The notes: generated by a model not told the origin, from the letters alone. A DNA stretch of 60,798 bases, filler included, from Dirinaria sp. TL-2023a (GCA_051941275.1; 13 parts of 13 records of this genome joined end to end with filler, not necessarily neighbours in it); one strand, 5' to 3'. Positions 15,110 through 60,798 are shown, counted from the first letter of the whole stretch. Made by a program: numbers and translations.

Positions 15110-16430
15110 GATCGAAATGAAAATTAGATTCGTTTTCGTTTCGTGTAGTTTGATAGTCTTTGATCGGCTTTTGATTGTGTCTGCTTAATCAATCGTGAGT
15201 TTTTTTTTTTTCTAACATTTGGTTCTTCTAAACACTATTACGTGTTCGCGTTCGATTGGGGTTAGCTCCTTGCTCGATCTTTCTCCGATCGTGTTCTGTT
15301 TCTCGTTGTCCCCCCGACTCTTTTTTGCAGCGTGTGATATTTTTTCGCCTCTTGATAACTACACTCGTCTCTTCTGAGAGAAATCAGAGAAATTAGATGA
15401 CACTCGAAGTACTGAAATTATACGAGCCCAATCAATATATCAAAGAAGGCCGAATCAAACAGCCATCACGTCGAATGCGTCAATCGTGACAAAAAGCATT
15501 CCGGAGATTAATTCGTCTCGAGACAAGACATTCTGCCAATCGCATATAATCGAGTGTCTCGTATGCAAAGTTGTTGTACCAAGAATCAAGATTGAAAGGC
15601 ATCACGAAAAATGACGCTATTAATTCGCAGCAGGTCTTTCACAGAGAGAGCTCTGATTGCATGCAAAAAATCCTTGGAAGTCTTGGACAATGCTTGATCG
15701 AAAGTTGAACAGGGATTATTAAATAATCTGAAAAAAATATTTAGAAAACAATTATTATCGTCGAAAAGTCGCGAGTAACAGCAAGAAAATTATCTCGAAA
15801 AGAAAATAACGGAAGCGACGAATATTTGCATTCATAACATGCGTTCTCAGACGTCTCTTCTCATTTCATATTCTCTCGGGATCTCTTCTCATAGGAATCA
15901 CACTTCGATCATGTCGACCAAGATTGATAAAAGCCGGAGTCGACAGAGCTTCGATCCAAGAAAAGTAGTAGTCTAACTAACAAGGGCTCAAAAGATGTAG
16001 AGCAATGTTGTGAGTAAAGATTAGAATGAAGATGGATCTCTTAATCAAAAAGGTGCCGAAAACGACGAGAAAAGACGTAAAAGTTGGCGTTCTTTAGAAA
16101 ACCTGTCATTAATGCCCGAAGCCCGTCAAACTTCCGAGAATGGTTGAGACAGACAAAGCGTATCGACATCGATAGATGCAGCAGGAAGCGGACAGAGAGA
16201 TCGCTCAGCTTGAACGCATTGCGAACAAACGAAAAAGAGAGCGAGACAGCGAAGTCCGACAGTATGCCAGCGAATCCGTTGCCGCCACTTCTGTCCTCGT
16301 TTCTGTCATCAGCGACACCACTTCTTGATCGATGAATCGAATTTCCACTTCACGCGACAGATGATGAGACACAGTTGCTCAATCTCTTGGTCGTGCTGGA
16401 GATAGTTTTTCTACAACTTTTTCGAGATTC
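15110..16430 (-). pseudogene. Degenerate, C-to-T-mutated gene or repeat relic of unknown identity
   Basis: CC/GG-poor island relative to its flanks. Minus-strand frames read protein-like but are broken by TGA/TAA. Boundaries approximate. Confidence 0.4.
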
Positions 16431-55582: not shown

Positions 55583-58500
55583 CGCTTGCGTCACGATCCG
55601 ATACCCATGGCCGACAGGAATAAGGCCTCTTTATGACGACGAAAATACGTACAATACATCGAACGACAACGAACATGTTTTGGGAAAACCCCGGCGACGA
55701 ATCCAGGGGATTACTTTTGCGAGCGATGGCGTTCCACGGCGTTTTCCACGTTGCCCGGCGCTCTGCTTACCTGTTCGCAACAACAGGATGATGGGGCAAC
55801 GTGGTCGATCCTCGATCGAATGGAGATCACGAGGTGCTTTCCTTTTTTTTTGCTTTTTTTTTTTTTTTTTTTTTTTTGTGGCGATACTAGGAGTCTGTAC
55901 ACTTTTGCTTCGCGCGTTCTTCGACCCGCCTTCTGCGCTTCCTGCGTGGTTTCTTTGCCTTCACTTACATACTTATTCTTCTTCTTCGACGGAACCCCAA
56001 CCGACATAACCAGTATCTTTATTTTGGGCGTTAATCCTTAATCCTAATCAGTCTGCGAGAAATGTTCGATGGAGGTGGTGGTGGTGGGAGGTTCGAAGTT
56101 TTCGAAGATCGGAATTGGGGGCACACGAGAAAGAAAGAAATGCGAGGATTAGGCTAGGTNNNNNNNNNNNNNNNNNNNNNNNNNNNNNNNNNNNNNNNNN
56201 NNNTTAATTAATTAANNNNNNNNNNNNNNNNNNNNNNNNNNNNNNNNNNNNNNNNNNNNCCTAACATCCATGTAAAGAAAAGGAAGTAAACTTAAGTATT
56301 TGGTGAATACATTTCGAAAAGAAGGCGATGACGGGAAGAAGGACCAGTGTGTATGAGACAGCGTCAGCGTAAAGATGCTGAAAAGCGCGGCCCCCAATCT
56401 ACTCAGGTCAGACCTATCAGTTAGGTATGCCAGAAAATATTTTATTGGATGTTGCACGATTTCAAGGTGGCAACATTCTATTTTTTTTTTTTTTTTTTTT
56501 TTTCTTTCGGGCATTAATTTTGTTTGGTGTGCTAAGTAATCAATAATCCACACACGTACTTCTACCAAACATACTCCTAAAGAAAATTCCTTTCATGGGT
56601 CTAAGTCCTAAGGTATGTCAACTCACTGGATCTCCCTTTTTGCCGTTCTTTGCATTATAGCGCACCGCATCTCTCATGCCACGCGTGTACGGAAGGTAGT
56701 CGTCGACTAACTTAGGTTGACGTATTGAATTATAACCCGATCCGAGAGCTGATTGTTCTTAAAGACCCAAGACAATTCAGTGAGCCCAGATAACGGCGTC
56801 TGGTGTGGTGTTTCAATTTTTTCGCTTGGAGAGATTCCAGCTTTGAATTTGTCAGGTTCGTATGGCGAGCAGTGTGCGTTTAGCCGGATCTAGAAAGCAG
56901 GACACGAGCACCTTTCTTGCACTTATCGTCTCATCATCGACGGTAATCAAGTAGGCGGACCTGCTTTTCGAATTATCATCCAGACACTGGAGTAGGGCAC
57001 GAGAACATGGAAAATTGTTGAAGAAGTGATTTTGAACGCTGGAAGGTTTCTTGGGCGGTTTTTGTCGGCTCTTAACCCATTATTAGGCTTGTTTCCTAAT
57101 GGCGCTGGGTACAATGGTGTAGGTGTATTCTGACATCTGGTAGTCATACTTCTTCAGCCATCCTGGCCGCCGAAACGGTGCCATTGCTCGCAAAGGGATT
57201 ATATCACGCAAATGTAGATCCGGTGAAGTTGTATGCAGCCATGGCTGATGTGATAGGGGTAGGTGAATGAGGTGAAACAATAGTCGAGGTGACCGAGGTA
57301 GGTGAAAGCACGGGTGGATTACTCAATAGTTCCAGGTAACATGATCGTTTGTAGGGTGCTTCACTCGATGAAGATACGGGACTCGATGGACTCCCGGGAC
57401 TGTCCAAAGATGGTGTGTGAAATCTGGTTTTTGAAATCGGCCTGCGAGCTCTGTAGGCAAGGCTCTAGGGGTGTGAGGTGAGGACGACGAGAGATCCAGT
57501 GTGAGTGGCGTAGCAATTATGGTACGCAGAGAGGAGTTACGGATGTCTCCGGATGAGCAAGAGCATGGCAGGTCTCTCAACGGTGGCTTGTAGCGTTGAG
57601 GACGACAGATTAAACCAATTGAAAGGATAAGGAGAAGTAAAAGATAAGACCAGTAACGAGTTGGGCCAACGATCAGTACTAGCGTCCATGGGTCTCCCGT
57701 ACCTTGACCCCTATGACGGGTCGCCAATCTGATCACATACTCTAACTGATGCTATCTTTGGAATATGGCTGGAATGTCACTCAACGGGATCATCGGATTG
57801 AATTTAACTATGTTGAATCGTCTAGTGAGATTGTTGCATCGGTTAACTACGTTAAGGCAGAAGCTGAGGTACCTAGGGCAGGCAGAAAAGAATTTGGCGA
57901 ATTTACATAAAATTTTATCCCACTGCGGCCACACCACCATACTCTATTGCCACACACCCTTCACTCTGCTGGCACATCGCTCTCCCCAATCATTATTATT
58001 GTATTCGTCTATCAATATTAATACCTCGCTCAAAAAAGTTTATCCTAAAATTTTTAACCTACTTTAACGGTTTCCGTATTTGACGATGGCACGTTCGTGG
58101 TGAATCATCTCATCGTCATCTCGTGAAATCGTCGTTGCTTGAAACTCGCACTCTGTAAAGGCAAAGAAATGAATATACTTCATTCCAAGGCATAAAGAAA
58201 TTGGATACATTAGCACGTGAAAATGAGTATTTAGCGGGAACAGTGATGTGCCAGTACAGTAGGGTAATGTGGCGGCAAAATTTTAGGATCGGTTTTTAAA
58301 AAAAAATCTATTCCTAATCGAGCTTAGATCCTTGAATATTTATCACATGCTGGGGGGATGCCTACCCAATCACATGCAGCAGCGCACCGCACTGACTACT
58401 CAACAAGCCAATAAGCAAAACCGTGAGGTCCACATAGGGACAGTCTGAATTACTTAATGATATTGTGGCTTCGAAAGCCTCGGGGAAAGACTTAGAAGCA

Positions 58501-58710
58501 TGACTCACATGGTGCATCATTCCTGCTCTTAAGCCTTCGCTTCGTCCAACAATCACTATACAAGCCTCAGCTTCATCCATTAAATACATTACTCAGCTTC
58601 ATTAAACAACTGCCGTACACTCCTTGTCACAACTTTCACATTTCCGACATCCATCATTCGTGCCCGTCCAAACCTCTATACGTGGAACCGCCGTCCTCAC
58701 TGAATTCAAG

Positions 58711-59205
58711 ATGGAGCCAAGAATTATACTCGCCAACGATTTCCCGCACTTTAGAGACTACTTGGAGATAACCATGAACCAGCCGGTGTTGTGGAAACTC
58801 CAAGAGCCATTGGATACTCGCGAGATTGTCGCTCACGCCGCAAAGATCCCAGTCAACGATCTGGAGGTCATCACGCTGGGCTTCAGAGCATGCAAACTAC
58901 GCTCGAATGACGTCGAAACCGTCTGCGATGAAAGGATCAAAGTGATACCTTCAGAGGTCTATGAGCGCAAGATCACTTATTTCGAATGCGCAGTTGTGCC
59001 CAGATCTGCGGTGGGGGCGGTCCAAGATTGGTATCTTCGACAGGGACTCTGGCCTTTTACCGGCAAGCGAGTCATGTGGGGAGACATAGACTCTCTGCTG
59101 CTTATGGGTTATCCACAACACGCCAAGGACAATCCTGCTGCTCAAGTCAACATCGACAGGGCCTTGACTGCGTTTCGCGTCGAATCCGGATTAGACAAGC
59201 AATGA
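58711..59205 (+). CDS. Hypothetical protein (164 aa), no family recognised
   Basis: CAAG-ATG-G start context, uninterrupted ORF and globular composition. Confidence 0.5.
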   Translation: MEPRIILANDFPHFRDYLEITMNQPVLWKLQEPLDTREIVAHAAKIPVNDLEVITLGFRACKLRSNDVETVCDERIKVIPSEVYERKITYFECAVVPRSAVGAVQDWYLRQGLWPFTGKRVMWGDIDSLLLMGYPQHAKDNPAAQVNIDRALTAFRVESGLDKQ

Positions 59206-60065
59206 TCTTTGCTTATTCCATTGAAGGTGCCCATCCTGTTAACAGCTTCAACGCGTTCGAAAGGGCCAACAAATTCAATGCGCAATCAGCGAAAGCAACA
59301 AGAAGCCAAGTTTTTTCGTCAGCAAATCTTGGTGCGTCAGCACCGAGCGACCCCCGGACGATGCACCATTTTCGACATATAAGATATCGCAGAATTTGAG
59401 GTTCTCCAGGAGGGAAAGATAGGCTAGGGTAAATACGGCCATCGCGGGCTAATGTTAGGCATGAAACTTGGGGCCCGCAGACAAGAATGGAGTATTACTG
59501 GGATCGGTCAAGTGTTTAATGTGCTGTAATTTCGTGGAGCAGTGGAAGATGAACGGAAAACCTTTCCGATCGAATGCCCCGTACATTTAAATTCTAGCCA
59601 TAGATTCTCCTCTTGCTTTAAAACCTATCAGCTAGAGGACTACAAAGAGCACAATCCCTCGCGAATTTCCACATAAAATCTTCCTCAAAACCTCAATGCG
59701 ACCCGTAAAGCGTACCTCTATCTATTAAATTCCTAATTCAAAATCACAGCTGGAATATCAATACTTCCCGGTTGGGGCAGCGGGATCTATTGATCACTTG
59801 CCTGGCCTACGATCTGGACATTGTACAAAGTGAAAGCCTTAATCTGGATTTCCACAGCCTTGAGATTTAACCTAAGTCAGGGCCAATTTCAGTTATGTGG
59901 CTTTGCGAAGCTAGCGCTGAATGGACAGCGAGCATGTAAAGTACGGTACTTATCGTTGGTTGCAAAATTCTTGTCCGTTTCGGCAAAACGTCACTTTTTT
60001 AGTGCGCACCCCACCAAAAAGTTGACCCGGATCAGAAAAATCGTAGAACTCATAAATCATCGTGT

Positions 60066-60460
60066 TGTTACGAGTCAGACTGGCGTGATCTTATATACGC
60101 ACTCAGTCGAACCAGGAAGTATGTCAAGTCGGTGCTCATGACGTCAAGGCTATTGAGCAGTGGCTCATGAAGCTCGACATGGTGAGCAGGGTGAGCAGTA
60201 ACTCATGAAGCTCGGCATAATGAGCAGGATGAGCAGAGATGCTCAAGATGCTCAGGCAATTGAGCTTCATAGTGCTCAGGGTGCTCAGGTGATTGAGCAT
60301 CGTGAGCATGAGGGATCTCATTGTATATATAGATCTTCAACACGACGTTTTTTTAGCATCGTGTTCAACATCTTTGCAATAACTATCTACTGCTCAGAGT
60401 AACTTGTATTTTGTTGTGATATCGTCATATCATCTCGAAGACACTCGTTGTTTCTTGACA
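60066..60460 (+). mobile_element. Probable 5' LTR of a Ty3/gypsy retrotransposon
   Basis: Begins TGTTACG and ends CTTGACA (TG..CA with imperfect terminal inverted repeat). Internal TATATATA. Lies about 100 bp upstream of a gag relic. Confidence 0.65.
60154..60236. repeat. 38-bp tandem duplication inside the LTR
   Basis: TGAGCAGTGGCTCATGAAGCTCGACATGGTGAGCAGGG followed by TGAGCAGTAACTCATGAAGCTCGGCATAATGAGCAGGA, then a further TGAGCAG. Confidence 0.85.
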
Positions 60461-60557
60461 GATCTCTTCAACAGATCAAACTTTAGCACCTTTTCTGTTT
60501 AGAATCTAACTCTAGATATTAGATCGATAGAACGCAACAACATTGAACACTCTTAGA

Positions 60558-60798
60558 ATGTCTGTCTCAGAACAACGTAATTCTGTTTCAAACATCACTG
60601 ACTCAGCAATCTCTCGCGAATCAATCAACAATGAACGTAACGATGATGACAAGATTAAAATCAACAAATCTGATGTTTATAAAAACGAAAAAGAAGAACT
60701 CGACGACTGACTCTTACAGATGAAATTATATTTTGTGTTTAATTCAGTATTTAGCGATCAGAGAACGATCTTCGTTTCAACGTTTCTTCGAGAAAAAG
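60558..60798 (+). mobile_element. Mutated Ty3/gypsy gag, N-terminal part
   Basis: Reads ..KIKINKSDVYKNEKEELDD*LLQMKLYFVFNSVFSDQRTIFVSTFLREK, matching the fungal gag pattern K..KPD.Y.G....LDDWL.Q..LYF.FN....K..FASTFLRG. TGA at 60708 replaces the conserved Trp. Confidence 0.85.

Follow-up and report, generated by a model that had tools for sequence, protein, structure and literature searches.

RIP is usually detected by its CpA-to-TpA footprint, and a form of it that acted on CpC would escape the standard indices. The RIPCAL paper, in its accessible text, defines a CpC-to-TpC class with an index and reports dominance of CpA. In the accessible portions of the Sclerotinia, rDNA-pseudogene and sooty-blotch papers, CpC appears as a minor class only. 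CpA, CpT and CpG signatures were described in ten fungi and linked to Dnmt1-type subfamilies (Amselem et al. 2015, available sections), with the CpT signature in Botrytis, Sclerotinia and Magnaporthe and the CpG signature in Tuber and Microbotryum. A TpCpG bias in Pucciniomycotina and CpG biases in basidiomycetes are cited in the available text of a Rhizoctonia paper. Among lichen-forming fungi, Xanthoria has large low-GC regions affected by RIP, with LTR/Ty3 elements among the targets (10.1101/2025.11.25.690456, accessible part), and the available portion of the van Wyk survey does not mention Lecanoromycetes. Here we describe a retrotransposon relic in which CC and GG are nearly absent and CpA, TpG and CpG persist.

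The window analyzed (the whole stretch of 60,798 bases) consists of 13 contigs set end to end, with 12 joins of the form N44-TTAATTAATTAA-N44 that lie about 4.7 kb apart and span positions 4619-56259. The pieces shrink from about 4.7 kb to 4.54 kb from left to right, and because the joined contigs are ordered by falling length, neighboring pieces have no genomic linkage. Proteins encoded by two of the pieces have database entries on contigs of 4,603 and 4,539 bp. The relic occupies the last 677 bp (60122-60798), at the right-hand end of the 4,539-bp contig (56260-60798). This single 677-bp relic is all that was seen of the element itself, and the substitution spectrum given below comes from relatives in other assemblies.

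Several pieces of the window carry fungal genes, encoding DUF3405, DUF7165, SPT23/MGA2, tubulin cofactor D and P450 proteins. The DUF3405 protein, which lies on another contig than the relic, has an atlas placement in Ascomycota. All named matches among the 120 listed for it are lichen-forming Lecanoromycetes, at 60-66% identity, and the other matches reach at most 88%. On the relic's own contig, the sole sizeable ORF has 3 relatives. By association with the DUF3405 gene on a different contig of the window, the host of the relic, a fungus, is probably a lichen-forming ascomycete. A scan of 11 large ORFs in the window revealed no DNA methyltransferase gene.

Homology identifies positions 60122-60798 as the 5' LTR, the leader and the first 80 gag codons of a dead LTR retrotransposon, probably of the Ty3/gypsy type (Table 1). 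The start of the LTR, at about 60122, was placed by comparison with two relatives on metagenome contigs, L001 and L003, whose mutual match begins with TGTTACG (at 209 and 302, respectively), where the window has TGTCAAG. Beyond this motif follow a stretch rich in GAGCAG/GCTCAG, a TATATAG box, a conserved GTGTTCAAC block and a conserved approach to the gag ATG; positions 60314-60557 align blockwise with the sequences upstream of the gag ATG in L001 and L003. The gag frame opens with an ATG at 60558; its 80 codons extend up to the contig end and are interrupted by a single TGA (60708-60710). These 80 codons alone gave no Pfam family match; homology links them to the gag N-termini of L003, P0006 and P0018, in which Retrotrans_gag and zf-CCHC are present. 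The assignment to the Ty3/gypsy type rests on the order of domains in L003 (Retrotrans_gag and zf-CCHC, then aspartyl protease, RVT_1 and RNase H), and the relic itself shows only the start of gag. Neither an integrase nor a second LTR was seen for the element, of which the window holds the first 80 gag codons only. When 66 gag/pol queries were searched against the window with tblastn, 44 matched, all at 60516-60798, and no other fragment of the element was found elsewhere in the window. A search of viral contigs gave 248 pattern matches, none of which was confirmed.

Table 1 Features of the relic and its contig, in window coordinates
Feature	Position	Strand	Remarks
Spacer before the last contig	56160-56259	n/a	Sets the left limit of the relic's contig
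Unique flank, unmutated control	56260-60121	.	CC 178 (189.7 expected), GG 224 (209.3 expected)
5' LTR part, GAGCAG/GCTCAG-rich, lightly mutated	60122-60313	+	0 CC, 13 GG; start placed by homology
Two tandem 38-bp copies, partial third to 60236	60154-60229	+	6 differences, all G/A
Remaining LTR and untranslated leader	60314-60557	+	1 CC (60489), 0 GG; 10.2 and 4.7 expected
First 80 gag codons, cut by the contig end	60558-60798	+	0 CC, 0 GG; 8.0 and 6.0 expected
In-frame TGA at a conserved W codon	60708-60710	+	W in 30/35 aligned sequences

We counted dinucleotides along the relic. The 479 bp from 60320 to 60798 contain no GG (10.5 expected) and one CC, at 60489 (17.7 expected), and CA (36), TG (25) and CG (21) are at or above expectation. 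An earlier note, written from the sequence alone, had claimed that GG is missing and CC occurs once from about 60320 onward, with CA/TG and CG still common; the counts agree, and the tract begins slightly earlier, at 60314. Over the full 485 bp (60314-60798), CC and GG together occur once, against 28.5 +/- 4.5. In 20,000 mononucleotide shuffles the count never fell below 12, and the poorest of 2,106 other 485-bp stretches of the window had 17. Both CC and GG are depleted, that is, both strands are affected. The observed/expected ratios (O/E) are 1.18 for CpA, 1.07 for TpG and 1.5 for CpG; TpA is not enriched (0.59), TCT is the most enriched trinucleotide (2.17), and the G+C content is 0.342. 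Homopolymer compression was considered as a cause of the CC/GG loss and rejected, as AA and TT are at normal levels.

Canonical RIP is usually called with thresholds of about 0.89 for TpA/ApT and about 1.03 for (CpA+TpG)/(ApC+GpT). The relic has a TpA/ApT of 0.67 (background 0.70-0.75) and a (CpA+TpG)/(ApC+GpT) of 1.03 (background 1.21-1.27), and by these two indices it lacks the CpA-to-TpA preference of canonical RIP. The claim that standard RIP indices would miss this relic is borne out by its TpA/ApT of 0.67. The ratio (CpC+GpG)/(TpC+GpA) is 0.011 in the relic, against 0.78-0.81 in the background and 0.78 in the flank (56260-60121). The second most CC/GG-poor stretch of the window lies at 15326-16400 (O/E about 0.5), with TC/GA and CG also raised. 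It gave no match to the gag/pol queries of the element (tblastn, 66 queries), and it may represent an ancient remnant, already decayed in part, of this CC-targeting process.

A HMMER search of 1.84 billion proteins with the gag relic revealed 36 relatives (E <= 1e-3), the long ones carrying Retrotrans_gag and a CCHC zinc knuckle; of 10 clusters among them, none has a name or an accession. We compared the conserved columns of the alignment. In the NKPD column, the 37 sequences divide into P 12, S 13, L 6 and F 6, with S in the window, and all replacements of P are C-to-T derivatives of CCN. The YHGD column (37 sequences) has G in 14, E/D in 13, N/K in 8 and R in 2, with N in the window. The corresponding counts for the LRGR column (33 sequences) are G 8, E/D 13, K/N 8 and R 4, with E in the window. 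W is conserved in 30 of 35 sequences at the position where the window has TGA, and the short ORFs P0025 and P0030 stop exactly at this column. P0015, P0020 and P0033 have Q there and P0024 has R; the Q may represent a TAG/TAA stop taken as glutamine by the gene caller. The earlier description of the relic as having S, E/N or a stop where the family has P, G or W is supported by these column counts.

The codon changes carry information on direction. A CpC-to-TpC change on the complementary strand would turn TGG into TGA, and canonical CpA RIP would yield TAG. The five informative codons are consistent with the CpC-to-TpC rule: four (GGT to GAA, GGA to GAA twice and TGG to TGA) changed through the second G, and GGT to AAC alone needed both. 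Replacements of P by S and of W or G by a stop or E occur within one frame of the relic.

A scan of metagenome contigs revealed seven loci that encode gag relatives (L001-L007). Six of them (L002-L007) have a whole-locus CC+GG O/E of 0.84-0.99 and a G+C content of 47-50%, so the intact relatives have a normal composition; intact copies as poor in CC/GG as the relic, which the earlier note had named as evidence against its reading, were not found among them. Together with the column counts, these relatives indicate that the ancestor of the relic had CC and GG. The stretch that adjoins the intact relative in L002 (L002:1001-2500) has a canonical RIP footprint, with a TpA O/E of 1.45-1.83 and a CpA+TpG O/E of 0.18-0.40, so that both kinds of footprint, canonical CpA RIP and the CpC-directed one, are represented around the family, on different contigs. 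The sequence upstream of the LTR in L001 (L001:1-208) looks CC/GG-poor and TC/GA-rich, and the CC+GG O/E of L001:1-500 is 0.60. An insertion of L001 into an older mutated repeat would fit the CC/GG-poor L001:1-208.

We obtained a direct spectrum from L001 and L003, using the intact-looking L003 as the reference and L001 as the mutated copy (2,065 bp aligned, 92% identical). Both come from metagenome assemblies other than that of the window and are distant from the window's element, with 49% identity over 462 aligned positions. From L003 to L001, the local alignment has 166 substitutions (168 in the first alignment), with 159 transitions and 7 transversions; C-to-T or G-to-A changes number 142, and 17 go in the reverse direction. 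The C-to-T rate depends on the 3' neighbor: 33% at CpC (81/246), 10% at CpA (28/279), 6% at CpG (14/222) and 6% at CpT (19/318). CpC is preferred 3-5 fold (odds ratio against the other contexts 6.1, p = 2e-21) and accounts for 81 of the 142 C-to-T changes. The 5' neighbor has little effect (7-18%; 15% after a C and 18% after a T), and GpC is the least mutated 5' context in L001. Changes on the two strands (55 C-to-T and 88 G-to-A) are interleaved along the whole element. L001 shows the spectrum of the relic in an unsaturated state. In the three control pairs formed by L004, L005 and L006, copies with ordinary divergence, Ti/Tv is about 1.6-1.9, changes are symmetric and there is no CpC bias.

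The 246 CC dinucleotides of L003 became TC in 74 cases, CT in 29, TT in 7 and something else in 2, and 134 remained CC in L001. A preference for CC had been proposed in the earlier note. CpC dominance stands: a spectrum led by CpA or CpG, which the same note had named as grounds against its reading, was not observed (10% and 6%, versus 33% at CpC). The two cytosines are unequally affected, mainly the 5' one being changed (CpC to TpC and GpG to GpA). The +2 base matters as well: CCT was mutated in 44 of 77 cases, CCC in 17 of 54, CCG in 7 of 35 and CCA in 13 of 79, and CCT as the best target fits TCT being the most enriched trinucleotide of the relic. TCA (13/64) and TCG (11/84) were secondary targets, and none of 87 CpG sites in CCG and GCG context was mutated.

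In the gag frame of L001, 12 of 30 P codons changed to S and 1 to L, and among 34 G codons 14 changed to D/E, 5 to S/R and 1 to K. None of the 8 TGG codons became TGA and one became TAG, a poor fit to the CpC rule. A direct count of the window against L003, which is noisy at 49% identity, gave T at 33 of 56 CpC sites versus 61 of 164 other C sites (p = 0.005), with C-to-T in excess in the other contexts too.

We compared mutation rules by applying each to saturation on 543 window segments, as stand-ins for the ancestor, and comparing the resulting dinucleotide profile with that of the relic (RMS z). The rule that a C followed by C becomes T on both strands gave 0.95, against 2.1 for the opposite rule (C preceded by C), 2.5 for no change and 8.4 for canonical CpA RIP. 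The first rule predicts O/E values of 1.67 for GA, 1.70 for TC, 1.54 for CG, 1.10 for AG, 1.08 for CT and 0.47 for TA and a G+C content of 0.375; the relic has 1.66, 1.58, 1.50, 1.04, 1.15, 0.59 and 0.342, respectively. With the homologous part of the intact L003 as the ancestor, the RMS difference was 0.186 for this rule, 0.401 for the opposite rule and 0.453 for the untransformed sequence. Saturating conversion to T of every C that precedes another C, on either strand, is the one rule that fits the profile of the relic. The model misses the GC dinucleotide, which has an O/E of 0.57 in the relic versus 1.06 +/- 0.22 predicted; this misfit may be partly ancestral, since L003 is itself low in GC dinucleotides (0.72).

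Two candidate rules were rejected in the same comparison. Canonical CpA RIP was the worst-fitting model (RMS z 8.4). The APOBEC3G-like rule, in which the 3' C of CC is changed, predicts a GC of 1.80, a CG of 0.92 and high CT/AG, against a GC of 0.57 and a CG of 1.50 in the relic, and it also disagrees with the fates of CC from L003 to L001 (TC 74 versus CT 29).

The hypermutated tract begins inside the element and not at its edge (60314 versus 60122). The first 192 bp of the LTR (60122-60313), which contain the 38-bp repeats, are lightly mutated and keep 13 GG with no CC. The two full repeats (60154-60191 and 60192-60229) are 84% identical, and their 6 differences, all G/A, affect 6 of 9 G sites that lie in GG and none of 14 other G/C sites (Fisher p = 8e-4). 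TGA, CATG and GAGCAG motifs are unchanged between the two copies. It had been pointed out before that the six differences all fall inside GG and leave TGA sites untouched, which this test confirms; two of the six are at a G preceded by T, which is CpA on the other strand and not CpC.

The homologous 169 bp of the relatives (L001:209-377) contain 4 CC and 12 GG in both L003 and L001. With the 13 GG kept by the window, this shows that the 5' LTR part is naturally CC-poor and was spared in both mutated copies. Ordinary changes between L001 and L003 peak in the 5' LTR (8/20 differences in the first 200 bp), and we infer that the copies were too unlike there to be recognized as repeats. Such an escape of the 5' LTR would point to a homology-dependent process. 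Variability of the 5' half of the LTR is also described for the Podospora element crapaud (PMC10787394, accessible text).

We interpret the relic as the product of a RIP-type, repeat-triggered defense with a preference for CpC (CCT in particular) that turns CpC into TpC, a reading to which we give a probability of about 0.68 from the sequence comparisons and the analogy with RIP. From 60314 on, a C-to-T process has struck both strands to saturation, its preferred target being a C with a 3' C and its best target CCT. Runs of C end up as T...TC and runs of G as GA...A. The process strips every P, G and W codon and lowers the G+C content from about 47-50% to 34%, sparing CpA, TpG and CpG, and it stops at the element, with the unique DNA on the same contig left normal. 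The responsible step may be a homology-triggered deamination of duplex DNA by an enzyme of the DNA-methyltransferase family, RID/Masc1-like or DIM-2-like, whose +1-base preference would be C instead of A. The variable 5' 190 bp of the LTR may have escaped for lack of pairing between copies. DNA-methyltransferase-family enzymes recognize the base on the 3' side of their target C, and AID/APOBEC deaminases the one on the 5' side; the dependence on the 3' base therefore points to an enzyme of the RID/Masc1 or DIM-2 type more than to one of the APOBEC type. We put at roughly even odds the more specific proposal of a lineage of probably lichen-forming ascomycetes with a RIP-type defense whose deaminating enzyme reads a +1 C, with CCT preferred and thus with an order of preference unlike that of Neurospora.

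Two features by which RIP is recognized bear on this reading. Transitions dominate from L003 to L001, and for the relic the composition and the codon fates suggest the same. As for a restriction to repeated DNA, the contig's own flank has a normal composition and the mutated sequence belongs to a transposon, whose LTR shows little change over its first 192 bp.

A different origin of the same end products, C-to-T on both strands and confined to the element, would be CpC-biased 5-methylcytosine on transposon heterochromatin followed by slow spontaneous deamination, with no homology search and no dedicated deamination step. One study connects the rate at which repeats mutate in a different fungus with the Dim2 methyltransferase (PMC8016269, accessible text), and for non-CpA signatures mechanisms of a methylation type are raised in Amselem et al. 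2015 (available sections). We regard this explanation, the main rival of the RIP-type reading, as unlikely. At 8% divergence, C-to-T changes in L001 outnumber all other substitutions by about 6:1 (142 versus 24), and in the relic 28 of about 29 expected CC/GG are gone, with the flank a few hundred bases away untouched. This saturation with little other decay suggests bursts over slow decay. The sharp limits of the tract speak against decay as well, and the escape of the variable 5' LTR better matches a requirement for homology. We know of no CpC-specific methyltransferase, which further counts against it.

APOBEC3G acts on a single strand, where it deaminates the second C of CC. An AID/APOBEC-like single-strand DNA deaminase that edits retrotransposon cDNA during reverse transcription would explain why a retroelement is the target and why CC is the hot dinucleotide, as it is for APOBEC3G. 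Such an enzyme is a highly improbable source of the changes seen here, as both strands are struck (55 C-to-T and 88 G-to-A, interleaved), P-to-S occurs together with W/G-to-stop/E in one frame of the relic, the 3' neighbor decides (33% at CpC, versus 15% and 18% where the base before the target is C or T) and TC outcomes exceed CT outcomes (74 versus 29). The least probable explanation is that no mutator acted, and that the element was always CC/GG-poor or the pattern arose by chance, through errors of assembly or base calling, or through sunlight damage to CC dipyrimidines. The relic does lie at the extreme end of a short contig in a fragmented assembly, and the intact relative has few CC by nature in its 5' LTR part (4 in 169 bp), but none of the 20,000 shuffles was as low as the relic, P, G and W codons and normal CC/GG are found in relatives, AA and TT are normal, an independent contig pair has the same spectrum, and damage or base-calling errors would cross the element boundary.

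If the RIP-type reading is true, RIP is under-called in such fungi, and surveys that find RIP rare or absent in certain groups of fungi may be wrong. CpC would then be a fourth 3'-neighbor preference beside CpA, CpT and CpG. The RID or DIM-2 homolog involved would be a natural variant in specificity, one that could reveal how target choice works in this enzyme family, and it would offer a way to ask which region of RID, Masc1 or DIM-2 determines the context. Tracts free of CC/GG, combined with the ratio (CpC+GpG)/(TpC+GpA) (0.011 versus 0.78-0.81 in the background), provide a simple screen for other assemblies. In the literature searched, as far as its accessible text goes and with subscription papers (e.g., Clutterbuck's 2011 ascomycete survey) and supplementary tables set aside, we found no case of CpC-dominant RIP. 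This suggests that, within that literature, the CpC-to-TpC target preference is new among RIP-like processes.

The process seen in the relic and L001 shares a CC hot spot on a retroelement with APOBEC3G, and differs from it in acting on both strands and in changing the 5' C. With RIP in Xanthoria it shares the broad host group and LTR/Ty3 targets; the accessible part of that report mentions no CpC context. RIP as known from Neurospora crassa and most Pezizomycotina, a premeiotic and homology-triggered process that depends on RID and/or DIM-2, likewise produces a great excess of C:G to T:A changes on both strands within transposons and can saturate and create stop codons; it prefers CpA to TpA, whereas the process described here prefers CpC, and CpA/TpG survive. 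From the non-canonical fungal C-to-T signatures it differs in its context, since CpC is absent from the CpA/CpT/CpG lists in their accessible descriptions and CpG is spared here (14/222). What it has in common with those signatures is the dependence on a species-specific base 3' of the mutated C.
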